64,000 bases of DNA from a virus. Taxonomy: Duplodnaviria > Caudoviricetes. The stretch lies in the IMG/VR virus record IMGVR_UViG_3300044695_005677, positions 1,847-65,846 of that record. One strand, given 5' to 3'. Shown one piece after another: positions 5,838 to 29,100 of the stretch. Below the pieces are notes generated by a model. It searched no databases and was not told the origin of the DNA. It saw only the letters and a program-made list of their open reading frames with translations. Each line of letters starts with the position of its first letter. Position 1 is the first letter of the stretch. A program made the translations under genes and the position numbers.

Positions 5838-6080
5838 ATGACTGCATCTCCCTACGCATCAGCAGCTAAGATTACCGAAGCCCTTGCGGTGATCGGTCAA
5901 TCCTATGTAGATACCAAAGAATACGGTCTGTATGTTCAGATCGCGATGGCTTTGGCAAACCGAAATGCGGTTGGAGGAGACCCAATGCAGAATACCGTCG
6001 ACGCCCTTGGTGGTAGCATCTTGGCTACCACCAAGCAGGGCATCTTGTCTCAGATTTTTGTCCTTGCTGCCACTGCATGA
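5838..6080 (+). CDS. Small hypothetical virion-region protein
   Basis: 80-aa ORF beginning MTASPYASAAKI. Confidence 0.65.
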   Translation: MTASPYASAAKITEALAVIGQSYVDTKEYGLYVQIAMALANRNAVGGDPMQNTVDALGGSILATTKQGILSQIFVLAATA

Positions 6081-6214
6081 CCGCTTCTCCCTACGCCTCC
6101 GATGCAAAGATTGCCGAAGCCGTTGCGGTTATCGAAGCGGAATACGTGGGCACTCGGGAGCAGACTCTTTTGCAACAGATATTGATCGCAATCGCGGTGA
6201 ATACGACCCCCTAA
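6077..6214 (+). CDS. 45-aa paralog of the preceding gene (not in ORF track)
   Basis: ATGA overlap. MTASPYASDAKIAEAVAVIEAEYVGTREQTLLQQILIAIAVNTTP aligns with the N-terminus of 5838..6080. Confidence 0.7.
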   Translation: MTASPYASDAKIAEAVAVIEAEYVGTREQTLLQQILIAIAVNTTP

Positions 6215-6245
6215 ACGACTACTCCCAGCCCCCTTTCTAGAGAAA

Positions 6246-6602
6246 ATGCTCCCCGGACAATCCACAGTGCTCAACGACCAGCTTGCCTTTGTCCAAGGAG
6301 ACACTTGGGGAGGGATACCATCTATCGCACTCGTCCCTGCGCCGAACTACAACGTAGCGTCGGCTGAAATGCAGTTCAGAGAGTCCAAGGTGGCTGTACT
6401 CCCATCTGCGACTCTATCCACAGCAGACGGATCAATCGTCATCAATAACGCTGGGACATGGAGTTTCACAGTTCCAGTGCAAAACCTTCCCCTGACTGCC
6501 GGAACCTACGACTGGCAGTTTCAAACCACAGACGTTGAAGGCAGTGTGCAGACCTATCTGCAAGGAACCATCCAAGTCTATCTCGACATCGTTCGCCCAT
6601 GA
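6246..6602 (+). CDS. Beta-sandwich virion protein (fibre adaptor-like)
   Basis: QGDTW...GTYDWQFQ...YLQGTIQV pattern typical of small Ig-like proteins ahead of fibre genes. Confidence 0.55.
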   Translation: MLPGQSTVLNDQLAFVQGDTWGGIPSIALVPAPNYNVASAEMQFRESKVAVLPSATLSTADGSIVINNAGTWSFTVPVQNLPLTAGTYDWQFQTTDVEGSVQTYLQGTIQVYLDIVRP

Positions 6603-9181
6603 GCACTACCGTCAACGTAACCACTGAAGGAGATGTCACCGTTGGTGTCGAATATAACCCTGTCGCAGGATCGGGAACCGATACCAACATCGGAATAACT
6701 CGGACATCTTCGACGGTTGTCGTCACCTCAAGTTCAGGTACGGACGGGACAATCCTAGCAGCAGACGGCACGAACGCAGGGGTTTTCACTTCTGCCAATT
6801 ACACCAAGCTGGCGGGGATCAGCGGCACCAACACAGGCGACCAGAACATCTTCAAGAACATAGCTGTAGCTGGGCAAGACACTGTAGTCGCTGACACAAC
6901 AACCGACACGCTCACACTCGTAGCAGGAACCAATATCACCCTCACGACGGACGCTGCTACCGATACCATCACAATCACAGCATCAGGAGGTGGAGGCACT
7001 GGAGATGTAGTTGGGCCAGCTAGCGCGACAGATGGAGCTTTCGCTCTGTTCGACACGACCACAGGCAAACTGCTCAAGAACGGATCAATCCCCGGCGGCG
7101 CAGCCACACTCAACGTAGGCACCACCGCAGGCACTGTTGCCGCCGGAGATGACTCTAGGCTCACAAACGCCCGCACACCCACGGCTCACGCCTCTACGCA
7201 CGTCACAGGAGGCTCCGACGCAATCCAGTCGGCTACGTCTTCCCAGAACGGCTTGGCTACTTCCACGCAGATCACTAAGCTCGACGGTATCGAAGCTGGA
7301 GCCGATGTCACAGATGCTACCAATGTATCTGCGGCTGGAGCCGTGATGAAGACCTTGGCTGATGCTAAAGGCGACCTTTTTGCTGCGACTGCTGCCGACA
7401 CAGTGACTCGCTTGCCTATTGGGGTATCGAATGGGCATGTGCTGACCGTTGATTCGGCGGAAACCACGGGGATGAAGTGGACGGCACCTTCCGGCTCCGG
7501 TGGTGATGTCGTCGGGCCAGCAAGCTCAACGGACAATGCTTTTGCACGGTTTGACTCCACGACAGGTAAACTTCTCCAGAACAGCACTGCGACTTTGGAC
7601 GATGTGGGTCTTGCATCTTTGGACGCCGTTCAGTTTGCCACAGCCCCTACAACAACCGAAGGAGTAGCCAAAGCTGTTTGGGATACAACCAATAGCTGCC
7701 TGAGCATTGGCCTCAACTCTTCAGTCACTAGCTTCGTCGGGACTGATCTTCATGTGAAGGTCTATAACCCAACGGCAAGCACCATGACCGTGATGCAGGT
7801 CGTTCGACAGAGCGGAGCTTCTGGCACTCGTCTCAACGTGCAGTTAGCTTTAGGGGATTCCGATACAACTTCCGCAACCTCTATCGGGGTCATTGCCCAG
7901 ACGATAACAAGCCATGCGGAAGGTTTCATCCAGATGGCAGGGTTGCTTCAAGGGGTGAATACGAACGCTTTTGAGGAAGGAGACACCCTTTGGCTATCTC
8001 CGACTACCGCAGGTCTGATTACCAATGTCCGACCCACTGCTCCAAACCATAGTGTTCGGATTGGTTACTGCATCAAGAAAGCCGTTGGAGCAGGAATTAT
8101 CCTTATCGACATCCTCAATGGGTTTGAAATTGGGGAACTGCATGATGTTGTTATCACCGAGCCAGTAGCCGACAATAGTTTCCTCACCTATGATACTGCA
8201 TCCTCAGTATGGATAAACGAAGCCCCCTCCGCAGCAAAATCCTCCATCGGCCTTGGCAGCGTGACCAACGATGCACAGACCAAAGCAGCGATTGTTCCGA
8301 ATACTGCACCGACAGCGGGACAACTTCTTGTGGGGAATGCAGGCGGAACGGCATACGCTCCAGTGTCACTCAGCAGCGACGCTACCGTAGCCAGCACAGG
8401 CGCACTGACTTTGGCGACCGTGAATAGCAACGTTGGTTCCTTTGGCAGCGCAACTCAGTCAGCAGCAGTCACGGTCAATGCCAAAGGCTTAGTGACCGCT
8501 GTCAGCACATCCACGATCACTCCAGCAGTAGGCTCAATCACAGGACTTGGCACTGGAGTGGCAACCGCTCTTGCAGTCAATGTTGGCACCGCAGGAGCGC
8601 CCGTTGTCAATGGTGGAGCACTTGGCACACCATCGAGTGGAACGCTCTCAAGCTGCACTGGACTGCCAATCTCTGGCCTCACTAGCTCCACAAGCACCGC
8701 TCTTGGAGTCGGCACGCTTGAACTTGGTGCAGCTTCAGACACAACCTTGGCTCGTAGTAGTGCCGGAAACATCACCGTCGAGGGCAATCTCATCTACCGT
8801 GCAGGAGGCAGTTTTGTGGGGATGCCTGTTGAGCTTGCTTATGCTTGCTCAGACGAAGGCACTGCTCTGACTACAGGGACTGCCAAGGTGACGTTCCGAA
8901 TGCCGTTTGCCATGACACTGACAGGAATCCGTTCAAGCGTCACGACAGCTCCAACTGGCAGCACTCTTGTTGTTGACCTCAATGAAGGTGGAACATCTGT
9001 CTTGAGCACCAAACTCAGTATTGATGCTACCGAGAAAACTAGTGTCACTGCTGCAACTGCTGCTGTTATCTCAGACAGCGCTTTGGCGGACGATGCTGAG
9101 ATGACCATCGACATCGACCAGATTGGCTCAACCGTCGCAGGAACAGGGCTGAAAGTGACCCTTATCGGGACTCGCGCATGA
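6599..9181 (+). CDS. Fibre or spike protein
   Basis: 860 aa, T/A/G/S-rich, with a duplicated GDVVGPAS.TD.AFA.FD.TTGKLL module and HASTH motif. Confidence 0.75.
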   Translation: MSTTVNVTTEGDVTVGVEYNPVAGSGTDTNIGITRTSSTVVVTSSSGTDGTILAADGTNAGVFTSANYTKLAGISGTNTGDQNIFKNIAVAGQDTVVADTTTDTLTLVAGTNITLTTDAATDTITITASGGGGTGDVVGPASATDGAFALFDTTTGKLLKNGSIPGGAATLNVGTTAGTVAAGDDSRLTNARTPTAHASTHVTGGSDAIQSATSSQNGLATSTQITKLDGIEAGADVTDATNVSAAGAVMKTLADAKGDLFAATAADTVTRLPIGVSNGHVLTVDSAETTGMKWTAPSGSGGDVVGPASSTDNAFARFDSTTGKLLQNSTATLDDVGLASLDAVQFATAPTTTEGVAKAVWDTTNSCLSIGLNSSVTSFVGTDLHVKVYNPTASTMTVMQVVRQSGASGTRLNVQLALGDSDTTSATSIGVIAQTITSHAEGFIQMAGLLQGVNTNAFEEGDTLWLSPTTAGLITNVRPTAPNHSVRIGYCIKKAVGAGIILIDILNGFEIGELHDVVITEPVADNSFLTYDTASSVWINEAPSAAKSSIGLGSVTNDAQTKAAIVPNTAPTAGQLLVGNAGGTAYAPVSLSSDATVASTGALTLATVNSNVGSFGSATQSAAVTVNAKGLVTAVSTSTITPAVGSITGLGTGVATALAVNVGTAGAPVVNGGALGTPSSGTLSSCTGLPISGLTSSTSTALGVGTLELGAASDTTLARSSAGNITVEGNLIYRAGGSFVGMPVELAYACSDEGTALTTGTAKVTFRMPFAMTLTGIRSSVTTAPTGSTLVVDLNEGGTSVLSTKLSIDATEKTSVTAATAAVISDSALADDAEMTIDIDQIGSTVAGTGLKVTLIGTRA

Positions 9182-9846
9182 ACCTTGTAAATCCATACTT
9201 GTTCGCGCCCGCTGGAAATACTGATCCGTATTTCGCAGATGTTAAGCTCCTGTTGCATCTAGATGGCTCAAACGGCGGCACATCAGCCACGGACTTCAGT
9301 CCTATCGCCAGAGCGATCACCTTTTACGGTAACGCCCAGTTGACCACCACTGATCCAAAATTTGGCACCGCTGCGTTGCTGCTCGATGGTAATGGTGACT
9401 ACATCGACACGCCCAGTAGCGCAGATTTCGAGTTCTCGGGAGATTTTACGCTTGAGGCGTGGGTGTACCTCACAACCACAAGTGGTAGTTACAAGACTAT
9501 TTTTGGGAGCGGGACGTATGGACTATACCACATCTCCAACACACTTGTCTGGTATAGCACAGTTGGTGGTCTGACCACGTTCGGGACGATCACGAATAAT
9601 GCGTGGCACCATGTTGCGATCAGTCGCAGTGGCACCTCGTTAAAATGCTTTGTGGACGGTGTGCAGAGTGGGTCAACGCTCACATCGAGCACGAGTTTCA
9701 CCTGCACCACAACGTGGAAAATCGGGTATGATGCCATCGGGGCGGCCTACCTCACCAGCAAGGTGGACGATGTGCGAGTAACAAAAGGAGTCGCTCGATA
9801 CACTGCTGATTTCACTGCACCAACTGAGGCATTCCCTAATTCATAA
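9178..9846 (+). CDS. LamG/concanavalin A-like lectin domain protein
   Basis: LLLHLDG...KFGTAAL.LDG.GDY...DFTLEAWVY...WHHVAISR...DDVRVTKGVARY. Confidence 0.85.
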   Translation: MNLVNPYLFAPAGNTDPYFADVKLLLHLDGSNGGTSATDFSPIARAITFYGNAQLTTTDPKFGTAALLLDGNGDYIDTPSSADFEFSGDFTLEAWVYLTTTSGSYKTIFGSGTYGLYHISNTLVWYSTVGGLTTFGTITNNAWHHVAISRSGTSLKCFVDGVQSGSTLTSSTSFTCTTTWKIGYDAIGAAYLTSKVDDVRVTKGVARYTADFTAPTEAFPNS

Positions 9847-12709: not shown

Positions 12710-13246
12710 ATGTCAAAACCAGTTCTTATTGCTTTTACGGGCCTTGCTCAAGCAGGCAAGACCACAGCAGCACAAGCCTTTTTGTCCCTAGGCTATGATC
12801 GAATGTCGTTTGCCGACCCGATCAAGGCAATGGTTCGATGTTTGACCCCGGTGGCGGATAAAGAAGCTCGCCCTGATGAGCTTTGTGGAAAAACTCTCCG
12901 AGAAGTTTATCAGTCCCTCGGGACCGATTGGGGGCGTAACATGGTTGGCGGCGACATTTGGATTCGCGCAGGGCGTTTTCGGATCGAGACTTTACTCAGT
13001 GATGTCTTGAGCGGAGTCATCCGTGGGGTCGTGATTGACGACATCCGCTTTGACAATGAAGCCGAGCTAATCCGTAACATGGGAGGCACGGTAGTTGAGA
13101 TTACCCGCCCAAACTCAGTCCAGATGGATCACGCATCCGAGGCTGGAGTATCCCGTCACCTGATTGACCACACGTTCTCCAACCACACGGACATCGACAG
13201 CTTGAAGTGCCAAGTCTTGGGAAAGCTCTACTACGGTGCGCCTTGA
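12710..13246 (+). CDS. Deoxynucleoside monophosphate kinase
   Basis: GLAQAGKTT P-loop, SFADPIK, R...Q.LGTDWGR, DDIRF.NE, H.SE. Confidence 0.9.
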   Translation: MSKPVLIAFTGLAQAGKTTAAQAFLSLGYDRMSFADPIKAMVRCLTPVADKEARPDELCGKTLREVYQSLGTDWGRNMVGGDIWIRAGRFRIETLLSDVLSGVIRGVVIDDIRFDNEAELIRNMGGTVVEITRPNSVQMDHASEAGVSRHLIDHTFSNHTDIDSLKCQVLGKLYYGAP

Positions 13247-13280
13247 TTGTTAGTTGAAAAAAGAGTAGGCTATTCTCAAC

Positions 13281-16200
13281 ATGGCTACTGCAAACTCTGC
13301 CCCTAATCTGCTGCCTTCGCAGAGAAGTCCTTTTACGCCTCTATCGACAGATGTGTTCGTAGTGGAGAACTTCAATGTTGTCCAGTCGCCCAATGATTCG
13401 ATTCCAGCTTATGGGACTCCACATGACACTCTTTCCAAGCTCAAGTCTTGGCCGAACCATAAGTTCTGTCTCCAGACTCAGCCGGACGAAAAAGGGAACT
13501 ATCAGAGATGGTATGTAGCTGATCAGGCGACACAGAACCTTTACAACTGGGAGATTAGCGATTCTGGGCCTTGGCCTGCAATCAACCAGACGTTCATCAT
13601 CCCTCGCGCTGATTATCGTGCGCTCCCAGCCAACCCTTCCACGACCTATCCCGCACCGCCGAATCCGCCGTTAAATACAACGGATTACGAGATTACCGCG
13701 ACCCAAGAACAGCGCATTGGGGAACCCAAACTCGACAGTCTTTATGTGTCCGTTCAGGTAACACGGGAAAAGGTCAGCACTATCAATACGGCGTATGCTG
13801 TCGATTTGGATACCAACACGGTTCAGGCAACCCAGACCCAAAAGGTAGCCGCAGGCACACAAGCTTCTGGAGTGGCAGCAGATGGGACTTATAGCAATGT
13901 CGCGGTTCAGAACTCGCTGTGGTCGGTAAAGACGACCCAGAAGGCAGCAGGATTGGCTGGGAAGTCGGTTAACGGGGTATCCACCCGTATTCTCTACTAC
14001 CGAGACAACTACACTTGGCCGAGAGTCCTGAACTACATCAATATTCAGGCAATCCAGAGCGATCCACGGAACATCTATTCCCCGATTTCTTCTTTCTCTT
14101 GGTCACCAGTCTGGCTCGCAGACGCTTTTGACGGGCCTTGCGACTACACTCTTGTAGAGCGGTGGACACTGGCAAAACCCGTATTTGGTGGCGACCCAAA
14201 CTGGAACACAGGTACTGTCTGGGCAGCGTCTACCGCGTATGCCGTGGATGCCTACGTCACCCGTGTTGTAGGGGACTCGCCAACCTATTACCGATGCATC
14301 ACCGCACACACCTCTGGTGGCTCGTTTAACGCCTCCTATTGGACGCAAGTTTCCCCACTGATCCCGCAGGAAACTCCCATGCTCAAGACGGAGATCGTGT
14401 TCAACGGAGCTAACTTACGTATTAGTATTCCTGCATGCTTGCATGAGCGATACAATCTCTGGGATACGCAGTTCTCACAGACATACCCAGCGACCAATCC
14501 TACCCGCTGGCCCGCAACGGTGCTTTCCCGTGTCACGGTAGTTCCCGACCAAGGCGGCTATCTGACTCGGATGTTCTACGTCAAGTCTCCGAGCACCGCT
14601 GGGAACCCGACAGACATTTCGTTGAGCTTGACGGCTGAAGCTGCGACAGGGTTCACGCTCTCAGGAGTGGTAGCAGCCACGGTTCCGACAGGGACGATGT
14701 ATCTATCTATCGCGACTGATCCAAATTTTGGTGGCGGGTTCTTGGGGACGTACAGTTCTCTGGCAATCGGGAGCCACACTCAAAGCCTAGTCGCCAATGC
14801 GCCCCCAACTTCGACCACAACTGCCGTTACTGGAGCCACTCGCGGCGTAACCTATTACGCGAAGCTGGTTTGTGTGCCAACTAACCCTGCACTGCCATCC
14901 GTCACAAGCAATCTCTGCATCGCGTTCACTGATCCGCAGCCTGAACTCTTAGTGTCTACGACTGGAGGTGATAACCTTGTCAGCGGTGCTCCCGTATCTA
15001 GTGCCAGCACAGCCAACGCTGTTTCGGTTGGGGGCCAGTCTACTTTAGACCTACGGTTGACCAATATTGGACTTGAGTCCTTATCTGGGTTTTCCACGAC
15101 TAAGACTTCAGGCGTGGCGGAGGATGCCGCCATGTTCACGGTGCAGCAATTCCCTGCTTCCATCGCCCCTTCTAATTCGGCAGAATGGAGCATCTACTTC
15201 AAGCCAACATCCCCCGGCTACAAGAGTGCCACTATCACGATCACAAGCAACGCTTCCACAACCTACGACCTGAACGTGGCGGGAACGGGAGTTGCTGCTG
15301 ACATCCAAGTGGAGCAGCCAGAGAACACGATTCTGGTAAATGGGGCGAACACCATCAACTTTGGTACGGTCACGACTGGAACGGCGGATAAGACCTTCTG
15401 GATTCGCAATGTCGGCAACGACTCGGTGCCTCTCAGGGACTTGGCTGTGTCTGTCAGTGGAACCAATGCCTCCGACTACACCCCTTCCGCGCTCTCTGTC
15501 ACTGAACTGGACAGCGGCACTTACACGATGTTCACGGTGACATTCGATCCTGTGTCTGAGGAAACAGCCTCAAGCACCCGCACGGCTACTCTTTCCATTG
15601 CGAGCACAGACACGGATGAGAACCCGTTCACGGTCAACCTGACAGGCGTTTCACAGAATCCGACAGCGCCGGGCGCAGTCGATCTGACTTGGGATGGAAA
15701 CGCGAATGGCACAGTTTACGGGATTGCCCACCAAGCCGATGGGCAAGCTATACTTGTGGGGGTATTCACTCAAATTGGAGCCACTGCACGTAACCGTATT
15801 GCGCGAGTGGATGCTTCTACAGGAGCCGTTGACGCAACTTTCAACCCAAATGCAGACGCTGCCGTAAACTGCGCATTGGTGCAGCCAGACGGCAAAATTG
15901 TTGTTGGGGGGGGTTTTGCCAATATAGTCGCTACTGCCAGAAACTACATCGCACGTCTCAACTCAGACGGCACCATTGATGCAGGCTTTGACCCTGACGC
16001 AGATGGGGCTGTTCGTTGCATGGCACTACAAGCTGATGGCAGTATCATCGTAGGGGGCGACTTCGCCAATATCGGTGGAGGGGCAAAAGCATGGCTAGCA
16101 CGCATCGACTCTTCGGGCGTTCTCGACGCTTCGTTCACAAGCGAGATTGATACTGTGACATCTCCGGGTCAAGTCTACGGGGTGACACTGCTTGAGGATG

Positions 16201-16556
16201 GACGGGTGGCAGTAGTTGGAAATTGGTCAGACACAGGGAACACGACCACTACGACAACCACGACCTCAACGACAGTTCCTCCTACAACGGCTCCTCCGAC
16301 GACAGTTCCTCCGACGACAGTTCCTCCTACAACGGCTCCTCCTACAACGGCTCCTCCGACGACTGCTCCTCCGACGACTGCTCCTCCTACAACGGCTCCT
16401 CCTACAACGGCTCCTCCTACAACGGCTCCTCCGACGACTGCTCCTCCGACGACTGCTCCTCCGACGACTGCTCCTCCGACGACTGCTCCTCCGACGACTG
16501 CTCCTCCGACGACTGCTCCTCCGACGACTGCTCCTCCTACAACTCCTCCACCGTAA
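13281..16556 (+). CDS. Tail/receptor-binding protein: Ig-like (ASH/choice-of-anchor D) domains, 3.5 delta-60 repeats, mucin-like Pro/Thr tail
   Basis: TIRNVG-type Ig domains, Q.DG.I.VGG.F...IARLN.DG..D..F repeats and a terminal PPTTA array. Confidence 0.8.
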   Translation: MATANSAPNLLPSQRSPFTPLSTDVFVVENFNVVQSPNDSIPAYGTPHDTLSKLKSWPNHKFCLQTQPDEKGNYQRWYVADQATQNLYNWEISDSGPWPAINQTFIIPRADYRALPANPSTTYPAPPNPPLNTTDYEITATQEQRIGEPKLDSLYVSVQVTREKVSTINTAYAVDLDTNTVQATQTQKVAAGTQASGVAADGTYSNVAVQNSLWSVKTTQKAAGLAGKSVNGVSTRILYYRDNYTWPRVLNYINIQAIQSDPRNIYSPISSFSWSPVWLADAFDGPCDYTLVERWTLAKPVFGGDPNWNTGTVWAASTAYAVDAYVTRVVGDSPTYYRCITAHTSGGSFNASYWTQVSPLIPQETPMLKTEIVFNGANLRISIPACLHERYNLWDTQFSQTYPATNPTRWPATVLSRVTVVPDQGGYLTRMFYVKSPSTAGNPTDISLSLTAEAATGFTLSGVVAATVPTGTMYLSIATDPNFGGGFLGTYSSLAIGSHTQSLVANAPPTSTTTAVTGATRGVTYYAKLVCVPTNPALPSVTSNLCIAFTDPQPELLVSTTGGDNLVSGAPVSSASTANAVSVGGQSTLDLRLTNIGLESLSGFSTTKTSGVAEDAAMFTVQQFPASIAPSNSAEWSIYFKPTSPGYKSATITITSNASTTYDLNVAGTGVAADIQVEQPENTILVNGANTINFGTVTTGTADKTFWIRNVGNDSVPLRDLAVSVSGTNASDYTPSALSVTELDSGTYTMFTVTFDPVSEETASSTRTATLSIASTDTDENPFTVNLTGVSQNPTAPGAVDLTWDGNANGTVYGIAHQADGQAILVGVFTQIGATARNRIARVDASTGAVDATFNPNADAAVNCALVQPDGKIVVGGGFANIVATARNYIARLNSDGTIDAGFDPDADGAVRCMALQADGSIIVGGDFANIGGGAKAWLARIDSSGVLDASFTSEIDTVTSPGQVYGVTLLEDGRVAVVGNWSDTGNTTTTTTTTSTTVPPTTAPPTTVPPTTVPPTTAPPTTAPPTTAPPTTAPPTTAPPTTAPPTTAPPTTAPPTTAPPTTAPPTTAPPTTAPPTTAPPTTAPPTTPPP
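16242..16553 (+). repeat. 15-bp coding tandem repeat (about 18 x PPTT[AV])
   Basis: Units CCTCCGACGACTGCT and CCTCCTACAACGGCT. Confidence 0.95.
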
Positions 16557-17278
16557 TGAGTCTGCCTAAAGTTAGCTGTATCTGCCCTACTTTCGCACGA
16601 TACCATCTGCTGAATGAGTCGGTAGAAAGTTTTCTTCGGCAGGATTACTCAGGAGAGTTAGAACTCATAGTTCTGAATGATTTTGCCCCCCAAACACTAC
16701 ATTTCACCCACCCAAGAGTAAAAGTCGTAAATGTCGAAAGTCGTTTTCCAACACTAGGAGAAAAAAGGGATGCAGCCTACCGACTCGCCACAGGTGATGT
16801 GTTTATCACTTGGGGGGATGATGACATCCATCTTCCACACCGAGTCAGCCGAATGGTGTCGTTCTTGGGGGAAGACCCAATGGCTTTTGAAGGATGGTTT
16901 TATGTGATACACGAAAATGGTATTTACTTAGAAAGACGCTCCACAGCGGGAGCGCATGTAATTACCTCAGAGGCGTATGCAACTTTGGGAGGCATACCTG
17001 CGCTGGATAAAGGTGAAGACGTGGCATTCAACGATCTCGCTCAAAAACATTTCAGCAGCATACGTGTATGCAAAAATGCTCCAGCCTTTATCTACCGATG
17101 GCATGGGACAAATCGTTTGCACGTATCAGGAACGGGATCAAAAGACCCCTATAAAGCAGTTTATGATAGAGCGATTGAGCTTGTGTCAGCAGGTAAGGAG
17201 CCTCAAGGCAGTTTACAGATCAAACCAGAATGGGTAGATAATTACTCAGAGATAGTGAAAGGTGCAAAACTCCGATGA
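16556..17278 (+). CDS. Glycosyltransferase family 2 (GT-A)
   Basis: TAATG overlap at 16554-16558. VSCICPTFAR, S.LRQDY, ELIVLND, WGDDD, GED motifs. Confidence 0.9.
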   Translation: MSLPKVSCICPTFARYHLLNESVESFLRQDYSGELELIVLNDFAPQTLHFTHPRVKVVNVESRFPTLGEKRDAAYRLATGDVFITWGDDDIHLPHRVSRMVSFLGEDPMAFEGWFYVIHENGIYLERRSTAGAHVITSEAYATLGGIPALDKGEDVAFNDLAQKHFSSIRVCKNAPAFIYRWHGTNRLHVSGTGSKDPYKAVYDRAIELVSAGKEPQGSLQIKPEWVDNYSEIVKGAKLR

Positions 17279-18105
17279 AACTCACCATCTCAATGGCGTG
17301 CTACGATGACTACGACGGTGTGTTTTTCACCGTCCAGTCGCTTCGTATGCACCACAAACTCCCCGCCGATACGGAGTTCTTGGTGCTCGACAACAGCCCG
17401 AAAGGCGACCACTTGGAGGCGACGAAGCACTTCCTGACAGCAGTCCCAAACAGCCGATGGATTCACGTCGAGGATCGTCAAAGCAGCTTCGTCAAATACG
17501 ACGCTTTCAAGCACGCAACAGGCGATGTCGTCCTCGGGCTAGACTGCCATGTGCTGCTTGAGACAGGTTTCATCGACAGACTCTTGGAGTGGTGGGGAGC
17601 AAACCAAGGATCGAAGAACCAACTCACAGGCCCGCTCGTCTACAACTGCCTGAAGTCCCGCTCAACCCACATGGAGCCTGCTTGGCGTGGTCAAGATTTT
17701 GGCACTTGGGGAACAGATGCAGTTGGAGTCAAAGGCACTGAGCCTTTTGAAATTCCTATGCAGGGGATGGGCTGCTTCTCCTTCTGGCGAGAACATTTCC
17801 CCGCAAACCTACCTGATTTCCAAGGTTTCGGGGCCGAAGAGTGGTTCTTTGCCGAGAAGGTGAGGAAGCAAGGCGGAAAGGTTCTCTGCCACCCCGCAAT
17901 GGGTTGGATGCACCGATTCTGCTGGCCGAAACGCTCCTATCCAAGCTGCAATGACGCACGGGTGATGAACTACTACCGAGGCTGGCTTCACCTCTACAAG
18001 TATCTCGACCATCCGATGATCCGAGTGATGACCCAGCACTGGCTTACTGTCATGCCGCAGAGCAAACTAGACGAACTGATTCAAAAGGCTATATTACCCG
18101 CATGA
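17275..18105 (+). CDS. Glycosyltransferase family 2-like (GT-A)
   Basis: LTISMACYDD, FLVLDN, A.GDVVLGLDCH, GFGAEE motifs. Confidence 0.8.
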   Translation: MKLTISMACYDDYDGVFFTVQSLRMHHKLPADTEFLVLDNSPKGDHLEATKHFLTAVPNSRWIHVEDRQSSFVKYDAFKHATGDVVLGLDCHVLLETGFIDRLLEWWGANQGSKNQLTGPLVYNCLKSRSTHMEPAWRGQDFGTWGTDAVGVKGTEPFEIPMQGMGCFSFWREHFPANLPDFQGFGAEEWFFAEKVRKQGGKVLCHPAMGWMHRFCWPKRSYPSCNDARVMNYYRGWLHLYKYLDHPMIRVMTQHWLTVMPQSKLDELIQKAILPA

Positions 18106-21100
18106 TTCCTGACCGCATCGCCATTCTCAATTCTGACGGGACAACTGACACGTCTTTTGCCGTAGGGGCAGGCTTGGACAGTGTGGGCTACGCCGTTACA
18201 GCCTTGCCCTCAGGAGAGATTGTAGCCGGAGGACAGTTCAGCTTCATCAGCGGAGCGGTGAGATCAAAACTCGCAGTCCTCAACGCCGATGGTACGCTGG
18301 TGCCAGATGTGCCGACACCGTCAGCCGTCGTATACACTGCGAACCTTCAGACAGATGGTAGCGTTGTTTTCGGGGGCGACTTCACCACTGTTAGCGGGAC
18401 GACACGCAACCGACTCGCCCGACTTCTACCTGACCTGACACTGGAAGCAGCCTTCAACCCGAACGTCAATGGGGTTGTCCGAGCTTTGGCTTTGCAGCCT
18501 GATGGGAGGATTCTGGCAGGGGGTCAGTTCAGCACAGTTGGCAGCACCACACGCAACAATGTCGCACGACTCTACAACGGCACCGCAGCCAACAGCCTCT
18601 ACGCCGTTAATGCCGACCTCATCAAGTGGGACAGGACAGGCACCAGTGAGGAGACTCAACGAGTCGAGTTTGAGATCGACACGGGTTCGGGTTATGGCCC
18701 GTTAGCTGGGGTCATCTCCCGCACGTCATCAGGTTGGCAGATTATACCGACAGTCTCTCTGTCCGGCTCCACAAACGACCTGAGAGCAACAGCTTTCCCA
18801 TCAGACTCACACAGTGAAGGTATCCAGCAAGCTACAGCCTCCGCCCCCATCCTCCCAGAGATCGAAGTTGAGATTGACGGAGTGATCCTGACTTCAGGAG
18901 TTGGCACGATCTACTTCCCAAGCACTCAGGTAGGCTCAAACTCGTCTAAGACGGTAACTGTCAGGAACATTGGCCTTGCCAGCCTGACGCTTGACGCGAC
19001 CCCTGTGACCTTCTCTCCGACAGGGCAATATGATGTGGTAACACAACCTTCTTCCCCAGTTTTGTCGGGGCAGTCAGTGACATTCACCATTGATCTGACT
19101 CCAACGTCCGCAGGGACGAAGACAACCACGATGACGATTCATTCCGATGATGCCGATGAAGCCAGCTTCACTGTCGCTCTTTCAGGTGTCGCTACCCCCG
19201 GCCAAGGGTCACAGGATTCGTCGTGGCAACCCGGAGTCTCTTCATTCGTGTACGCCTTATCCCAGAGGACAACTGGAATTACAGGCATTGGCGGTAGCTT
19301 CACCTCCGTAGGAACACAGACCCGAAATCGCTATGCCTTCGTTGATTCGCTTGGAGCAGTTCAAGCACAGTCAGGAGCGGGGGTGAATAACAACGTGATG
19401 TGCATGGCGCAACTGCCTGATGGGAAGGCACTTATTGGTGGAGACTTCACAACGCAGTACATTCGCAGACTCAACGCAGACGGGTCGATTGATGGCACCT
19501 TTACGTTGACCACCAATGGTGCGGTTCGGTGCATGTCCTTGCAGGCTGACGGTTCTGTGCTGATCGGGGGAAACTTTAGCACCGTCACGCTAGGGGCAGT
19601 AAACGTGCGTCAGCGAATCGCTAAAATTGACTTCTCTTCAACAGGGGTTGCTTCGGTGAACGCTTTTTCCTGCCCGTGCAACGCCTCAGTAGTGTCCACT
19701 CTGCTAACCCAAACAGACGGCAAGATAATTGTGGTAGGGGACTTCACAGCTATCGCGGGATCAACGCAGTACTACGTAGCTCGGCTAAATGCAGATGGGT
19801 CTATTGACAGCGCTTTTGCAGCTAACATCACAGGTAAAGCGTGGGTGGCAGCTTTGGATGCTTCAGGAAGAGTACTGTTAGGCGGAGGCGTGTTATACAT
19901 CGCAGGAGCAGATAAGCGCGGAGTCGTACGCCTGACTTCAGCGGGTGCGCTTGATGGGACATTTACCCTTGTAGCTTCAAGTGCTGACACCCTCATCCCT
20001 CAGACAGACGGGACTTTGGTTATCGGCTCTACCACGGCGTACCCCGCAAGCACCTCGCGAGTCGAACGTGTGACTTCAGCGGGTGCAAACGACACCACGT
20101 TCATAGCAGCAGCAACTGGGAATGTGTTTGCGCTGTGCATTCAGGAAGACGGTTCCGCGTTAGTCGGAGGTGAGTTCCAGCTAGCTGGTGGGCCTGTGAC
20201 TTACGCAGCCAAGCTCATCAACGGCACAGGGGCTAGCACCCTGTCTGTCGTCAGCCAAACAGCCGTTCAGTGGCTCAGAGGTGGCACGCTTCCTGAGACT
20301 CAGGTTGTCGTGTTCGACCTTAGCCAAGATGGTGGAACGACATGGGCACGTCTCGGACAAGGCACACGTATTTCAGGCGGGTGGACTCTGACAGGCATCT
20401 CTCTCCCTACAGGGGGGTTGCTCAGAGCAAGAGCATACGTCCAATGCGGGTATATCGGCGGTTCAGTATCCATTCAGGAGGATCAACTCACCTTCTCAGG
20501 TGTGCTTGCCCCCGACCTGATGCTCCAAGTTGCCGACGGCTCCTCTATTCCCGCAGATGGACTAACAGGATATTTCCCTGTGTCAGACGATGGATCAACT
20601 CGATACTTTACCGCAATCGGTGGAGCTTTTATCGACATTCTTGTCAAGCTGACCAACGCAGGCACGGCAACGCTCTCAAGCATTGCAGCGACGCTCACAG
20701 GATGGTCAACTGAGTTCTCCATCGCAAGTTCCCCACCAACCAGTCTTTCAGCGGGAAACTCGGACACGATGGTTGTTCGTTTCTCTCCTGCCACTGGAGC
20801 AAAGGGCTATCGGAACCCGACTCTTAACATCGCGTCCAATAATCCCGGAACCAAAAGCACCTACACGATTCAGGTCAACACAGCAGCCGTAGCTGTGCCT
20901 GCTGCAACCACTGGGGTCGCAAGTGCAATCGGGGGAGGCTCCGCTACACTTGCGGGAACCTTTACGCCAAACCACATCGCGGCTACCTGCTATTTCCAAT
21001 ACAAGCTAGTGGCTTCCTCGACATGGCTCACATCCAGCACGAACACCGTAGCAGGATTTAGTCCGACCCCCTCAACCAAAGTTATCTCTGGGCTTACCGT

Positions 21101-21224
21101 TGGGCAGAATTACCACTTCCGCGCAGTTGTGTACAACTCCATCAACACGATCACTTCCATCCCGACTACAGGAACGACAAGCACCGATCCTTGGATTGGG
21201 GCAGTCGTTGCCTTCACCGCTTAA
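18102..21224 (+). CDS. Delta-60 repeat beta-propeller/Ig-like fibre protein
   Basis: Starts mid-repeat (RIAILNSDGTTDTSF): 3.5 repeats, Ig domain, 7 further repeats, Ig and FN3-like C-terminus. Confidence 0.85.
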   Translation: MIPDRIAILNSDGTTDTSFAVGAGLDSVGYAVTALPSGEIVAGGQFSFISGAVRSKLAVLNADGTLVPDVPTPSAVVYTANLQTDGSVVFGGDFTTVSGTTRNRLARLLPDLTLEAAFNPNVNGVVRALALQPDGRILAGGQFSTVGSTTRNNVARLYNGTAANSLYAVNADLIKWDRTGTSEETQRVEFEIDTGSGYGPLAGVISRTSSGWQIIPTVSLSGSTNDLRATAFPSDSHSEGIQQATASAPILPEIEVEIDGVILTSGVGTIYFPSTQVGSNSSKTVTVRNIGLASLTLDATPVTFSPTGQYDVVTQPSSPVLSGQSVTFTIDLTPTSAGTKTTTMTIHSDDADEASFTVALSGVATPGQGSQDSSWQPGVSSFVYALSQRTTGITGIGGSFTSVGTQTRNRYAFVDSLGAVQAQSGAGVNNNVMCMAQLPDGKALIGGDFTTQYIRRLNADGSIDGTFTLTTNGAVRCMSLQADGSVLIGGNFSTVTLGAVNVRQRIAKIDFSSTGVASVNAFSCPCNASVVSTLLTQTDGKIIVVGDFTAIAGSTQYYVARLNADGSIDSAFAANITGKAWVAALDASGRVLLGGGVLYIAGADKRGVVRLTSAGALDGTFTLVASSADTLIPQTDGTLVIGSTTAYPASTSRVERVTSAGANDTTFIAAATGNVFALCIQEDGSALVGGEFQLAGGPVTYAAKLINGTGASTLSVVSQTAVQWLRGGTLPETQVVVFDLSQDGGTTWARLGQGTRISGGWTLTGISLPTGGLLRARAYVQCGYIGGSVSIQEDQLTFSGVLAPDLMLQVADGSSIPADGLTGYFPVSDDGSTRYFTAIGGAFIDILVKLTNAGTATLSSIAATLTGWSTEFSIASSPPTSLSAGNSDTMVVRFSPATGAKGYRNPTLNIASNNPGTKSTYTIQVNTAAVAVPAATTGVASAIGGGSATLAGTFTPNHIAATCYFQYKLVASSTWLTSSTNTVAGFSPTPSTKVISGLTVGQNYHFRAVVYNSINTITSIPTTGTTSTDPWIGAVVAFTA

Positions 21225-21230
21225 CCCATC

Positions 21231-21428
21231 ATGCCCGATGTCGATCCCGAAGCCGAAGACCGAGTTGCCACTCTCCAAGGAGAGAATGGCGATGACGCAC
21301 AGTTCTTGGCTACGCGAGATCGAACAAAGGAGGTCATTGATCAGCGGTTTGATCTGTATCGCTTCATCTCAGGCGAAGGGGCAACCGTTCACAACTGCCA
21401 AGAATCCCTGATCTCTTCCTCCGAATGA
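21231..21428 (+). CDS. Hypothetical protein
   Basis: 65-aa ORF coupled to the next gene. Confidence 0.5.
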   Translation: MPDVDPEAEDRVATLQGENGDDAQFLATRDRTKEVIDQRFDLYRFISGEGATVHNCQESLISSSE

Positions 21429-21610
21429 TCCCGCAAGAAACTTGGGAAGCCATGTCCCCTGAGCAACAAGCAGGAGCTTGGTGGGCGGAGTTAGATGGGA
21501 TGCTCACTGCGGCTTTGGATGACGTGGTGTATCAGGCGGATAACGAGGACACCATCGTTCTCTCCGGCCTGACTTTTATCGTTGGAACCCGTGTTGCTGT
21601 GACCCCATGA
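21425..21610 (+). CDS. Hypothetical protein
   Basis: 61-aa ORF with ATGA overlaps on both sides. Confidence 0.55.
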   Translation: MIPQETWEAMSPEQQAGAWWAELDGMLTAALDDVVYQADNEDTIVLSGLTFIVGTRVAVTP

Positions 21611-22213: not shown

Positions 22214-23701
22214 ATGGCTACTGCTAAACCCTTCTCGCGTAACGGTAATCTCCTTGCCCCTCCTCCGCCTACTAGGGGGAAAAAGATTATGGGAGTCAGT
22301 GCGGGACCAAATAAGTTCCAAGAAGCTGGGCGTAACCTTGAAGAGGCTGGGTTTAAAGTCCAAAATGGCCAGCTTACCCCGACCCAAGACTACGGGGCAA
22401 TGACGGGCCTTGCCTCTGAGCAAAGGAATTCTCTGTCCCTCGGGTCCAAGCCGGGCAGTGTCTCCACGCTCGGTAGCCCGATGAACTCGATGTATGCGGC
22501 GAACCCGGGGTTTTTCCAACGTAGTGGCGGCGGTGGTGCCGCTGCTGTATCTCCCGAAGTCGCCCGAGCACAGAATATCGCCGCAGCTAAGAAAGCGGGA
22601 ACCTTTGATATCATTCGGGACCAATACAATGCAAAGGGCGGTGCCCAGATGAACGAGCTTGGGACAATCGGAGCGGCGGCTGCTGCTGCTGCTCCTGCGG
22701 CTACGGCTGAAAGCGTTGCCGCCCAACGTGCCAGCATACAAGGTGCTGCTGCTCCTGATATTCCTGCTGCTCCTGCGGCGGAAACTGGCGGATATGAGTA
22801 TGACCCAAATGCCGAAGCGGTGAATACGCTAGCAGACTACAGCAAAGGAGCGACAAACGCGGAGATGGCGGCTGGACCAAAACCTGCTACTCCTGCGGCT
22901 GCTGCTCCAGTCGTTCCTGCTCCTGCTCCAGCTGCTCCGGCTGCTCCTTCCCAGATGGACCTAAACCGTCAGGCTCTTGAGCAGGGCGCTGCGGGCATCC
23001 GTTTACGGCGTGAAGCCTTGGGCCAGATGCCCCAGTCAATTACTTCGGATAGAGGCTACAAAGTAGTTACTGATGCCAAGGGTAATATCGTCGGCACAAA
23101 TGCTCCTGTTGCCCCTGTATCGAGTGCTGTTGGTGGTTTTGCTGACCAGCGTGCTGCTTTCAATATGGGTAAAGGCACATCCGCTGAAAAAGCCGCCCTT
23201 GGCCCAAATATCCGTAGCGCAGCCCTTGCCGAGCTATCTAGGCCAGCGCCAAAACCGATGGCTGCAACTGCGCCAAATGCGGGCGCACAGATGGGTCCGC
23301 CTCTTCAGGGATCGGCACAGATGGGTCCGCCTCTTCAGGGATCGGCACAGATGGGTCCGCCTCTTCAGGGATCGGCACAGATGGGTCCACCTAGTGTGCC
23401 TAACAAGCCTATTCTATCTACCTCTGCTCCTCCCAAGATGTTTGAGTCCGCGACAACTAATAGGTTTGATCTTGTTGGGCCACCGTCAAATATGTCTCGC
23501 CCAATCCAAGGGCCACCCAATGCGGCTGCGACTACTCCTTATGAGCGCATGCAGAAGACTACCCTTGGTCCGGCAAAACCGAATGGGCCTATTCTATCTA
23601 CCTCTGCTCCTCCCAAAATGATGGCGGCGGCTCCTGCATCTATTCCGACTAAGGACGATATCACCAAACAACGTGCTTCTCTTGCCTCCACTAAACGCTA
23701 A
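22214..23701 (+). CDS. Low-complexity A/P/G-rich protein, possible internal virion protein
   Basis: 495 aa, looks disordered, carries internal repeats. Confidence 0.6.
   Translation: MATAKPFSRNGNLLAPPPPTRGKKIMGVSAGPNKFQEAGRNLEEAGFKVQNGQLTPTQDYGAMTGLASEQRNSLSLGSKPGSVSTLGSPMNSMYAANPGFFQRSGGGGAAAVSPEVARAQNIAAAKKAGTFDIIRDQYNAKGGAQMNELGTIGAAAAAAAPAATAESVAAQRASIQGAAAPDIPAAPAAETGGYEYDPNAEAVNTLADYSKGATNAEMAAGPKPATPAAAAPVVPAPAPAAPAAPSQMDLNRQALEQGAAGIRLRREALGQMPQSITSDRGYKVVTDAKGNIVGTNAPVAPVSSAVGGFADQRAAFNMGKGTSAEKAALGPNIRSAALAELSRPAPKPMAATAPNAGAQMGPPLQGSAQMGPPLQGSAQMGPPLQGSAQMGPPSVPNKPILSTSAPPKMFESATTNRFDLVGPPSNMSRPIQGPPNAAATTPYERMQKTTLGPAKPNGPILSTSAPPKMMAAAPASIPTKDDITKQRASLASTKR
23285..23391 (+). repeat. 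30-bp tandem repeat (AQMGPPLQGS, about 3.6 copies)
   Basis: Exact GCACAGATGGGTCCGCCTCTTCAGGGATCG units. Confidence 0.95.
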
Positions 23702-26135: not shown

Positions 26136-29100
26136 ATGCCTTGGGAAATACCAATTACATTCGGAAAAACAACGTATCCTGTCCGTTTTAATACAGAGGG
26201 AGAACCGACGCAGGCAGATATCGACGAGGCAATAGCTATTATTCGCCAACAGCGGGAAGCTCCGCAGACAGACCTTGATAAAGCGTTAGCTCTTATTCGT
26301 CAGCAACAGGAAAATCCTCAGCCTGATGCTACAGGACAAGGGCGGCTATCAAGTGCGGCATCCAATGTTGGGCGTGGAGCGTTGTCGGTTATCCCGGGGA
26401 CTATCGGTGGCGTAGGATATGTCACCGGATCAGATACCCTGACTGGCGCAGCTAAAGACGTTGAGCAGGGCATTGAGAAGATGCTTCCCGTGAATCCCGC
26501 TTATCAAGAGGAGTTTAGCCAAAAAGCCGCAAACGTATTAGGTCAAGCAGGTGGTATGTTTCTGACAGGCGGAGCAGCGGGCGCAATCGGTAAAGGTCGT
26601 GCTCTAGCCAAGGGTTTAGAAGCCGCAGCAGCAGCCGCTAAAGGCACCAAAGCCGCTCAAGCAGCATCGCTAGGGACAGGAATACTGCAAGGAACCTATA
26701 GCGGAGGGCAGGAAGCCGAGAAATACGGCATGACTGGGGGCAGTGCTTATGCGCGTGCCTTACTCGGTGGAGCACTTGAAGGTGCCACTGAAAAGTATCT
26801 ATTCGGTATGGGCACAGAACTTGCCCCAGTGCGTAAGTTCCTTGGAGACACCGTGGAACGCGGAGTCGGGGGTATCCTAAAAGCCACTGGAACTGAGGCA
26901 GGCGAAGAAGCCGCTTCTCAGATCGGTGGCAACATCGCCACAACGGCTCTTGCCCCTAAAGGGGTAGTTACGCCAGATGTGATGTCCGGAGTCGGAGAAG
27001 CCGCACTCCTTGGGGGTATTGCAGGAGGAGCACTTGGCGGAGTTAATAACCTGATGCTAGGTAGTCAAGATACTGCTGAAACTCCCCCTGAATCGGGAGC
27101 TACTGAACCGAAAGACCCATTAGTCGCAAACCTCAATGCGGCGATAGAAGCAGCTACGGCTAACAATACTGGCGAAGAGGTAACTGTGGAAGACCTTGTC
27201 CAAACGGCTAAAGAGCGTTTTGGGGTTCTTCAGACTAAAGCTGCCGACCAGACGACGCCTCTGACACAGGAAGAAGCGGACGAGATGGATGCCCTGACAA
27301 CGGCTTTCACCGACCCAACGAATATCGATCATGCGGGTCTGGCCGATCTGTATAATCTTCGCATCACGGAGCCTGTTGCTGACGAAGTAGCTCCTGTGGC
27401 TCCTGTTGAGGACGAGCTTACACCTGCGGAGAGCTACCGCTTAGATGCGTTGCAGGAGATAAAAGATCGGCTACGGGCTGGGGAAATCACTGTTTCTGAG
27501 TACCAACAGGAAGTGGCACAACTAGAAAAGGATTCTGCCGCCGCCTTTTCTACCCCAGAGGAACTTCAATACCTAGAGCAAATTCAACCACTCAAAGACC
27601 GCTTGGTTGCGGGGGAAATCACCATTCCTGAGTACCAGAAAGCTATTGAGGAAATTAAAACAGGGGTAGCTCCTGCTCCTGTGGTTCCTGCTGCTACTGC
27701 TCCTGTGGTTCCTGCTGCTACTGCTCCTGTAGTTCCAGCTCCGGTAGCCGATCCTATTATCGATGCTGCGGTCGTCGCGGTAAATAAGCCTGATGCCAAT
27801 CTTCCGATTGTTGCTGCTCTCGTAAATGATGGGGCGCTCAATCCTGCTCCGATACCAACCCCAACAGAACCCCCAGCCAATGCCCCTACCCAAGAACGTG
27901 AAGTCGAAAGCCCAAGTGGGACTCCTCCTGTCCAAGGCCAGCCCGCTGACCAAGGCGCAAATCGCCAAGCTCCGGAGGGAACTGCACAGCGGGAAGGTGA
28001 AGGTGCAGAAGTAGCCCCTGCTCCTGCTCCTATCGAACGCAAGAAGATCGACGCAATTTTTGAGCGTATCTTGAAGCGAAAGTCCACGGTGCCGTTGATC
28101 AATGGGATGTTCCAAGTACCGTACGCAGTAGCTCTCAAAGACCCTAGCTTGCGTCCAACCAATAGGAATGAGCAAAGCCTTCGTTATCGCACCAGCACGA
28201 AAGGAGAAGTCACTGGAGACTTCAATGCTAGCGACTCACGGGACACAATTATTTTTGATGAACGTGTTCGAGGTGCCAGAGCGCCCGTAGCACCCGTAGA
28301 AGTCGCTGCGGAGAAGGAACAGCTTACTCCAGAAAAAGGAGATGAAGTGTTTGTAAAAGGTGGTGATGCTAGAATCACTCGCCGTATTGACAATATCTTT
28401 ACCGCCGAAGGCAAGCAGATGGTTCTGTTACAAGGACTTCGCGACCCAATACCTTTGGAGAATACCACGGTTGATCCTAAATCGGATTATCGTAGACGAA
28501 AACAGAAAAAAGCTGAACAAGCGGCACCAGTAGTTAAAGCAACGCCCCAACTAGTTCGACAAATGGGCGATATAGCTGTGAAAAATAGGACGCCTATTGA
28601 TCAAAGATACGTCGAAGACTACCTTGGGGGGCTTGCGCCGGAAGGATACGCCCTTAACGAAAAGGGTGATCTTTATATCTATTCTCCGAGTCGAGGTCCG
28701 CAGTTCAGTCAAGGTGGTCAGGCAAACACAGCGCAGGATACCGAGTATCTTGAGCTTGCCAAGAATCCTGAAAAGAACCGCTCACTGCTGCAAAAGATGG
28801 TGGATAAGGCGGCGAAAATGGCGGGATATAATGTGGGGCCGGTTTATCATGGAACCGCTCCAAGTTCATGGAAATGGGACGATGGATTAAAACTATTTGG
28901 AGTTTTCGGCAGGGATTGGACAGCGTTTAATGGACCTGCTTATTTTGCGGCAAACAAAACCTATGCAGACGCATTTGCTAGCCATCGCTCTGGAGAGCGC
29001 GCACTTGGGAATGATCCAATAACGCTTTCAGTCATGCTTTCTGGAAAGTTTAAGGACATGCGAAGTGTTAATGGTTTCTGGAAAGAGTTAAGGAATAACC

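Follow-up and report, generated by a model that had tools for sequence, protein, structure and literature searches.

A candidate fibre propeller of a lake-water phage, divided inside one blade around a mucin-like tail and glycosyltransferase genes

Two neighbouring genes of an uncultured lake-water phage, which we call A and B, are best explained as the two halves of one fibre or adhesin gene that is broken inside a beta-propeller, and the gap between them holds two glycosyltransferase genes, GT1 and GT2. The genes lie in a stretch of 64,000 nucleotides (nt) of IMG/VR record IMGVR_UViG_3300044695_005677, hereafter the window, which covers nearly all of the record (65.8 kb, complete by CheckV). 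The break is best placed in the hairpin between strands 2 and 3 of blade 4 of the first seven-bladed DUF5122 propeller, where A runs on into a Thr/Pro tail that looks mucin-like in sequence and is a putative O-glycan acceptor. We give a probability of about 0.6 to the overall best explanation, a split fibre with a glycosylated tail. Its parts differ in strength: that the gene is split and the predicted propeller reassembles is well supported in silico and, in our judgement, highly likely, and glycosylation of the tail by the cassette, the best reading of the enzymes, stands at somewhat better than even odds. By their domain content and gene neighbourhood A and B would be parts of a fibre. The finding is real, conserved and unusual.

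Anatomy and conservation of the broken propeller

Gene A encodes a phage-specific N-terminal domain, for which neither Pfam nor PHROG has a name, two HYDIN/ASH-type immunoglobulin (Ig) domains, 3.5 DUF5122 repeats and the tail; a Protein Atlas search with A residues 1-560 gave no usable match. DUF5122 (PF17164, a 36-residue profile with a gathering score of 27 bits as its cut-off) was matched by A in three stretches with 90.6 bits (E = 7e-26) and by B with 185.6 bits, and the whole genome holds ten matches to the family, eight of them over the cut-off. We built a repeat hidden Markov model (HMM) of 49 positions from six repeats of the window. With it, propeller 1 has no complete set of seven repeats in one polypeptide: three repeats and a partial one fall in A, a partial one and three repeats in B. 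The partial match in A (residues 949-992) spans profile positions 10-36 and that in B (residues 4-15) positions 39-48, the latter being weak (E = 0.26) because it is short. Residues V979, G980, W982 and D984 of A are invariant among seven sequences. After its half-repeat and three repeats, B continues with a W.R.G domain, an Ig domain, a second propeller (residues 372-709) with seven units by the repeat HMM in one chain, one of them weak, a second W.R.G domain, another Ig domain and a C-terminal beta-rich domain, so ordered that a W.R.G..ETQ.V.F stretch follows both propellers. The four genes overlap from stop to start, by TAATG between A and GT1 (16554-16558) and by ATGA both between GT1 and GT2 (17275-17278) and between GT2 and B (18102-18105). 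The tail-coding DNA at 16269..16553 consists of 19 tandem copies of a 15-nt unit (90% matches; Table 1).

Table 1. Positions in the window of the split propeller, its tail and the two enzyme genes
Feature	Position	Strand	Basis
Gene A, proximal half of the candidate fibre, 1091 amino acids (aa)	13281..16556	+	Pfam, repeat HMM
Propeller 1 repeats 1-3 (A aa 801-850, 851-899, 900-948)	15681..16124	+	Repeat HMM, full-length, E 1e-25 to 1e-29
Propeller 1 repeat 4, first part (A aa 949-985), ends VAVVGNWSD	16125..16235	+	Repeat HMM, complex prediction
Thr/Pro tail, about 106 aa (A about 986-1091), mostly PPTTA/PPTTV units	16236..16553	+	Sequence
GT1, family-2 GT-A glycosyltransferase, 240 aa, DDD motif	16556..17278	+	PF00535, E = 1e-12
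GT2, polypeptide GalNAc-transferase-like GT-A enzyme, 276 aa, catalytic domain only	17275..18105	+	Structure prediction, Foldseek, motifs
Gene B, distal half of the candidate fibre, 1040 aa	18102..21224	+	Pfam, repeat HMM, collinear with C-terminal halves of fused homologues
Propeller 1 repeat 4, end (B aa 1-15, MIPDRIAILNSDGTT), complement of the A half-repeat	18102..18146	+	Repeat HMM, complex prediction
Propeller 1 repeats 5-7 (B aa 16-66, 69-114, 115-162)	18147..18587	+	Repeat HMM

The break is conserved. A search of viral contigs with A returned seven loci with 55-93% identity, and L020, L024 and L099 are three further contigs, the last from a scan with the split protein P0022 described below, which also returned L100; in all ten of these related phage contigs the break is identical, after G-x-W. 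In each of the seven loci A ends a few residues past an invariant G-x-W-x-D and passes into a low-complexity tail, after which come two or three small genes and then B, starting with M(S)IP(D/N)(R/S)IA(I/V)LNS(D/N)GTTD. Across seven sequences, 13 of the first 19 residues of B are invariant (68%), against 33% in the rest of the first half-propeller and 24% in residues 163-1040, as one would expect of a strand at an interface. All relatives have a T/P- or S/P-rich tail, though the repeat units differ. Near-identical DNA was found in many lake-water metagenomes from different studies, with no RNA data set among those listed. Assembly error and decay of the split locus are excluded, because in four of four other lake-water runs contig pieces run through all three junctions (A/GT1, GT1/GT2 and GT2/B) and show neither joint nor indel there; two of these runs leave the tail repeat at 16224-16431 uncovered.

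Uninterrupted forms of the gene also exist. Residues 1-800 of A had 3872 hits in an exhaustive profile-free search, in a list dominated by Ig repeats, from which we read 19 proteins bearing the N-terminal domain, leaving out about ten shorter rows that are probably fragments. Three of the 19 are uninterrupted, namely P0015 (2050 aa), P0052 (1928 aa) and P0064 (1937 aa). In BLASTP alignments, A175-980 corresponds to residues 299-1037 of P0015 and B9-1019 to residues 1051-2037; A57-970 to 48-896 of P0052 and B6-1030 to 928-1928; and A45-982 to 40-954 of P0064 and B7-1026 to 964-1936. In these fused forms A without its tail and then B thus align end to end, with about 9-31 residues between the two alignments. 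In P0015 the repeat HMM found 7 + 7 matches; the fourth repeat is whole there, and in the second set two matches are very weak (E 1.4 and 0.0028). In the first propeller of P0064 it found seven, the fourth of them weak (E = 0.027).

Another six of the 19 proteins are split (P0003, P0013, P0014, P0022, P0029 and P0056); they end right after G-x-W (G-x-F in P0056), and these distant forms carry various tails (PTPSPSPPPP, TTEPPP, TASDSPSPPP, TTTTTEE, TTTTPEP and ITDPP). The remaining ten have another distal module, with NHL-type repeats by eye. This suggests that the N-terminal domain of A serves as a conserved anchor to which different distal parts can be joined, much as in receptor-binding proteins, and it is for this reason that we call A and B a fibre. 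Scans of viral contigs with P0015 and with P0064 gave no matches, nor did a viral scan with P0014, and a metagenome scan with P0015 gave Ig-domain matches only. Two smaller features were seen among the split proteins: the Thr/Pro tail of P0029 closes with a small Cys-containing motif (GGCMDISASNYDSSATFDDGSCIYPP), and P0056 has, besides its terminal tail, a Pro/Thr-rich insertion inside an earlier blade (residues about 1090-1140).

In a tree of the Ig domain and the first 3.5 repeats (16 rows, with P0056 omitted as aberrant) the three fused forms stand on one side of a branch with support 100/99, so one change of state suffices. Rooting with the paralogous Ig-plus-propeller-2 module did not resolve the base, and a clade of all split forms was not rejected (p-AU 0.415). 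The pieces in A and B read as complementary parts of one repeat array, so that the propeller must at some depth have been intact; the fused forms may have retained or regained that state, and we claim no direction from the trees. An earlier note on this DNA, made from its letters, had described 3.5 + 3.5 repeats, TAATG/ATGA coupling of the four genes, an intact seven-repeat second propeller in B and a similar W.R.G...ETQ.V.F domain after both propellers, all of which are recovered here. Uninterrupted homologues, collinear with A then B and with the fourth repeat intact, bear out the idea of one gene behind the two. The note had further proposed that a cassette was inserted into the propeller: the interruption stands, at a conserved position, and the present forms may have come from insertion or from a later re-fusion.

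Tail, enzymes and the slot between the halves

The two genes in the gap are of different standing. GT1 has an orthologue in L013 that is 66% identical and no sequence match in the PDB at E <= 0.01; from its sequence it is a putative elongating enzyme. GT2 scores 20.5 bits against PF00535, under the cut-off of 23.3. A model of GT2 from a 63-sequence alignment reached a predicted local distance difference test (pLDDT) score of 91.8 and a predicted template-modelling (pTM) score of 0.91, while a 5-sequence alignment gave pLDDT 49.8. Foldseek against the PDB placed this model with polypeptide N-acetylgalactosamine transferases (ppGalNAc-Ts) in all the matches listed (ranks 1-50), from human, fly and Toxoplasma, with E 4e-14 to 5e-11, a template-modelling score of 0.62-0.76 by query (TMq) and of 0.37-0.48 by target (TMt), the latter this low because the targets are 436-546 aa long. 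The only full-length sequence matches in the PDB are GalNAc-T4, T12 and T7, and the E values against family GT27 were 0.011 and 0.044 with the single sequence and 0.0025-0.0096 with the 63-sequence profile.

Residues D39, D90, H92, E188 and H213 of GT2 are invariant in the 63 sequences, and in the HMMER alignment its DxH (D90, H92) and H213 line up with LDCH and GHVF of GalNAc-T4. In ppGalNAc-Ts a DxH and a distal His are the Mn ligands. GT2 thus resembles GT27 enzymes (PDB entries 6nqt, 6pxu, 2ffu, 2d7i, 6h0b, 6iwr, 6e4q, 6s22, 1xhb and others) in its predicted GT-A catalytic fold and in these motifs, and its G-x-E-E stretch is aligned with their WGGEN stretch. Like mucin acceptors, the sequence neighbouring GT2 consists of Thr/Pro-rich tandem repeats, and both Thr of the PPTTA unit carry Pro at +3; a Thr with Pro at +3 is a favoured acceptor context of ppGalNAc-Ts. 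Unlike GT27 enzymes, GT2 has no ricin-type lectin domain and would work in the bacterial cytoplasm rather than the Golgi. On the strength of the model, we regard GT2 as a putative initiating polypeptide O-glycosyltransferase.

Across the relatives, the gap between A and B is a variable slot in which at least four enzyme sets occur, each paired with a tail type of its own. Thr-run tails (APP, VPP, EEP) occur in the window, L012-L015, L020 and L024, together with GT2 and either a GT1-type enzyme, an FkbM-type protein of 423 aa or small methyltransferase-like proteins; a PDVSPT tail goes with a GT8-like enzyme and a methyltransferase-GT29-like fusion (L009-L011), and a Ser-Pro tail with GT9-like and Capsule_synth-like proteins (L099). 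GT2 lies next to B in every relative with a Thr-run tail. L020 and L024 are close in their fibre and in GT2 (96% identity in the A body, 93% in B and 97% in GT2) and carry different modules. L020 has an EEP tail and a 204-aa methyltransferase 78% identical to that of L014, whose A is only 55% identical to its own, and L024 has an APP tail and a 423-aa protein 87% identical to that of L012, so that modules 78-87% identical are shared with fibres only 55-63% identical. In these sequences, tail and first enzyme appear to move together between fibre backgrounds, which fits functional coupling.

The slot can also hold a gene of another kind. L009 has an HNH_3 homing-endonuclease gene (5912..6457, minus strand, E = 2e-11) that lies between its glyco-cassette and B; at the equivalent site L010 and L011 have a gap of about 600 nt, which presumably holds the same gene. 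The window has no HNH gene, its insert being the two glycosyltransferase genes. These are the two GT-A genes that the earlier note had seen in the break, GT1 by its Pfam match and GT2 by predicted structure, and the fold, motifs and family neighbours of GT2 agree with its suggestion of protein glycosylation, the enzymes looking more like protein O-glycosyltransferases than like enzymes for DNA or lipopolysaccharide. It had also spoken of a self-contained cassette, and an acceptor tail and enzymes do lie together in the break, but the single fixed insert that it pictured gives way to an exchangeable one.

The relatives of GT2 extend well beyond this fibre. We found the family in 284 viral-contig stretches and counted neighbours in the best 80 loci, taking as T/P-rich any open reading frame (ORF) with at least 80% T+P+S over 40 aa and as near any ORF within 2.5 kb of the GT2-family gene. 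T/P-rich ORFs made up 23 of 430 near ORFs and 1 of 443 far ones (Fisher p about 1e-6, the loci not being independent). They were found in 22 of the 80 loci, nearly always just upstream and always on the same strand, and these 22 represent about 8-10 separate phage backgrounds, with short fibre-like and unnamed proteins among them. A GT1-like gene adjoins the GT2-family gene in five of the 80 loci.

Several observations weigh against a glycosylated fibre tail. No T/P-rich ORF was found nearby in the other 58 of the 80 loci. In L048 the GT2-family gene adjoins replication genes (helicase, primase), and about 35 other loci share its pattern of ORF sizes; when four such records (42-74% complete) were searched whole, a run of at least eight Thr codons was present in only one. 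The similarity of GT2 to GT27 in sequence is remote (E 0.002-0.04), and its 276 aa contain neither a lectin domain nor any further Pfam domain. Physical linkage alone may yield the co-variation of tail and first cassette gene. Lastly, the virion-fibre status of A and B comes solely from domain content and gene neighbourhood, and PHROGs offers no functional name for either.

It is from the 58 loci without a nearby acceptor that the main rival draws its strength. It holds that the split propeller is real and reassembles and that the enzymes do not act on the tail, being morons or auxiliary genes in a permissive intergenic slot; they would modify glycans of the host envelope, the DNA of the phage or other proteins of the virion, leaving the tail unmodified, as a flexible spacer or whisker. 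The replication-gene neighbours, the scarcity of poly-Thr runs in whole records and the effect of linkage all suit this view, as does the HNH gene of L009, by which the gap accepts unrelated cargo. Against it, the nearest structures of GT2, among the matches listed, are all peptide-acting enzymes; T/P-rich ORFs are enriched beside the GT2 family; all four cassette types are made up of glycosyltransferases, joined in some by methyltransferases, and each keeps to one tail type; and the cassette genes are translationally coupled to late structural genes. On balance we consider this rival unlikely, and glycosylation of the tail the better account.

Some GT2-family loci had features of their own. 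In L048 and in about 35 of L031-L096, which share its ORF-size pattern, the GT2-family gene follows conserved ORFs of about 490, 340, 247 and 343 aa; by eye, those of L048 are DnaB-like helicase, primase, deoxynucleoside monophosphate (dNMP)-kinase-like and nuclease-like proteins, and not structural ones. The 106-kb record that contains L074 (G002) has long poly-Thr coding runs at about 26984..28596, some 19 kb from a GT2-family gene beside replication genes. Poly-Thr proteins are encoded upstream of the GT2-family gene in two unrelated phages, L025 (4082..4750) and L044 (2465..5963, plus strand), and share a Cys-containing domain after their repeats (…YTANSTFNSS…GYFIYG.TTY.YTNG…); L025 also has homologues of the 191/195-aa and 423-aa cassette genes of the fibre clade.

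Predicted assembly of the halves and a proposed mechanism

We predicted the complex of A795-992 with B1-170, using a 7-row alignment for each and three controls; the A-B pair was the only pairing modelled. The interface score ipSAE was 0.91, 0.91 and 0.92, against 0.00 for the best control; for comparison, 58 of 80 solved complexes and 2 of 110 mismatched pairs attained this mark. The A/B runs agreed in at least 95% of contacts, with a partner pLDDT of 88. The lowest-error contacts fall at two seams: A976-980 with B5-9, the strands that flank the break, where the predicted last strand of A (A977-980) pairs with B5-9, and A808-812 with B140-154, where repeat 1 faces repeat 7. This is the predicted geometry of a single ring with two seams, and these are the contacts expected of one propeller, in line with the earlier suggestion that it reassembles from two chains. 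We take the model as support for co-assembly and not as proof, since tests of this kind are known to pass the halves of split genes by their likeness to solved propellers, and this one rested on shallow alignments of seven rows.

The same reservation is what speaks for A and B being separate fibre proteins, whose half-propellers stay open or close by homo-oligomerisation, for the predictor can pass by likeness to single-chain propellers and only the A-B pairing was predicted. We nevertheless find this improbable. Neither a pair of A chains nor a pair of B chains would complete the blade, because the partial repeats are complementary (profile positions 10-36 and 39-48); the fused homologues are collinear across the break, whose position is fixed across deep divergence; the N-terminal half-repeat is the most conserved part of B; and the controls stayed at 0.00. 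A covalent rejoining or removal, by split-intein trans-splicing, an enzyme-carrying intron or ribosomal bypassing, or else a decaying pseudogene or an assembly error, is very improbable. Phage split genes are sometimes repaired by such means, but no intein or Hint family of Pfam matches A or B; the end of A is made of low-complexity repeats, and B opens straight away with the missing strand. Rfam gave no match in 13000..21500 at E <= 1, and the genes between the halves are conserved and intact, with their translation coupled. The same arrangement recurs in ten other contigs and four independent runs, and the tail stays T/P-rich in protein while its DNA repeat units differ.

For the split fibre with a glycosylated tail we propose the following course of events. 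Because the four genes overlap stop to start, a single late transcript probably carries A, GT1, GT2 and B, and their translation is probably coupled. The two pieces, of 3.5 blades each, would then reassemble non-covalently, the last strand of A pairing with the first strand of B and repeat 7 of B closing on repeat 1 of A, and the propeller so formed would join the virion-proximal A to the distal B. The break would leave A with a free C-terminus in the middle of the fibre, bearing the mucin-like Thr/Pro tail of about 100 residues. In the host cytoplasm the enzymes encoded in the gap would glycosylate this tail, GT2 starting the glycan on Thr and GT1 extending it, and in relatives methyltransferases or other glycosyltransferases would modify the glycan. 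The outcome would be a glycan "whisker" on the side of the fibre, located on the virion, where it may serve in adsorption, shielding or solubility. Tail repeats and enzymes may be swapped jointly by recombination, diversifying the glycan; such swapping is possible because the flanks are conserved (upstream G-x-W-x-D and a Thr run, downstream GT2 and the beginning of B).

Known systems, significance and further features of the genome

Four precedents come close to parts of this arrangement, one of them the GT27 enzymes above. In a T4-like phage the mobile endonuclease gene mobE splits nrdA, whose products come together non-covalently and need splicing of neither RNA nor protein (Crona et al. 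2010, PMC3045599). As there, inserted coding DNA turns one phage gene into two ORFs, and non-covalent reassembly is here predicted; as with mobE, an endonuclease gene lies in the gap of L009, and presumably of L010 and L011. As far as that account goes, the present case differs in that the cargo comprises a substrate tail and glycosyltransferases or methyltransferases and not merely a homing endonuclease, that a wide group of phages has kept the slot while its content varies, and that the cut protein is a structural beta-propeller, whereas NrdA is an enzyme; the tails of NrdA are interaction domains, and the tail here is a long low-complexity Thr/Pro repeat.

Sec13 forms a seven-bladed ring with Nup145C, Sec31 or Sec16, partner strands completing the blade (PMC2922654), and is like the predicted ring of A and B in being built from two polypeptides. 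In that account Sec13 gives six blades and an unrelated partner from a separate gene gives one; here the division is 3.5 + 3.5, the break falls inside a blade, and the chains are halves of one ancestral gene, adjacent in one operon. In mycobacteriophages, phage glycosyltransferases are thought to decorate the C-terminal parts of structural proteins (Freeman et al. 2023, via PMC12619734), and, as such a system would have it, glycosyltransferase genes here adjoin a candidate structural gene whose C-terminus is the putative acceptor. The mycobacteriophage case, so far as it is described in that source, concerns capsid and tail-tube subunits of actinobacteriophages and is experimental, whereas ours concerns a candidate fibre known from sequence and models, in which the putative acceptor is a long mucin-like repeat created by the gene split. 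In none of the four precedents does an in-blade cut of a propeller occur together with a new terminus that bears a mucin-like tail and with enzyme genes that form an exchangeable cassette, and in the open-access literature that we searched there was no account of a split fibre propeller, a phage ppGalNAc-T-like enzyme or mucin-like phage fibre tails.

It is tempting to generalise further, though we would put the chance a little below even: tailed phages may possess a mucin-type O-glycosylation of their own, in which a compact, lectin-less relative of the animal ppGalNAc-Ts, carried by at least 284 viral-contig stretches, initiates glycans at poly-Thr/Pro tracts in virion proteins, and the fibre propeller would have been cut to seat a swappable module of acceptor tail and enzymes midway along a fibre that fragment complementation alone holds together. 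If true, one recombination event would change the surface glycan of the phage and leave its receptor-binding parts untouched, and virion glycosylation would extend from actinobacteriophages to freshwater phages. Phage glycosylation would also be linked to an enzyme type so far tied to eukaryotic mucin biosynthesis, which raises the question of the origin of GT27-like enzymes. The co-transfer of tail and enzyme suggests a route to glycan diversity that bears on adsorption, on escape from recognition by hosts or grazers and on the design of glyco-decorated particles, and a putative cytoplasmic peptide O-glycosyltransferase of 276 aa with a simple repeat as its acceptor could serve bacterial glyco-engineering. 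A conserved natural beta-propeller working as two non-covalent 3.5-blade pieces would be of interest in itself; with fused and split forms both available, it offers a ready-made system for studies of fragment complementation and repeat-protein evolution.

The rest of the genome has few named relatives. Megablast of 13281..21224 against the phage collection gave zero matches, tblastn with B found only two jumbo Stenotrophomonas phages (31% identity over 15% of the query), and PHROG matches were few across the proteins of the window. A scan for promoters and terminators found about what chance would give (5 where 4.8 were expected, and 9 where 9.0 were). A homologue search with the half-propeller of B (residues 1-260) was dominated by bacterial delta-60 proteins and added only close orthologues of B. 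Its best matches outside phages are bacterial delta-60/Ig surface proteins with 34-48% identity, many of them labelled Verrucomicrobia (Opitutaceae, Puniceicoccaceae), which in sequence terms is a weak hint at the host of the phage or the source of the module.

Among the neighbouring genes, a 287-aa ORF (MLAVVTCFFNFGNFKRP...) without a Pfam match lies between the endolysin and dNMP-kinase genes of relatives (L010 8574..9437, L012 8577..9440 and L013 5187..6050, plus strand) and is missing from the window. In the structural region of the window, ORF 26136..34988 (plus strand, 2950 aa) has an ART-PolyVal ADP-ribosyltransferase domain (residues 903-1034) and a SHOCT domain and is probably a polyvalent internal or ejected virion protein. 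ORF 22214..23701 (plus strand) encodes an Ala/Pro-rich protein of 495 aa without a family match and contains, at 23285..23392, a 30-nt tandem repeat of 3.6 copies with 98% matches that encodes GSAQMGPPLQ units. Directly after an 860-aa ORF without a family match, 9178..9846 (plus strand) encodes a 222-aa protein with a concanavalin-A-like lectin/glucanase domain (Laminin_G_3, E = 8e-20), which may be another adhesin module.

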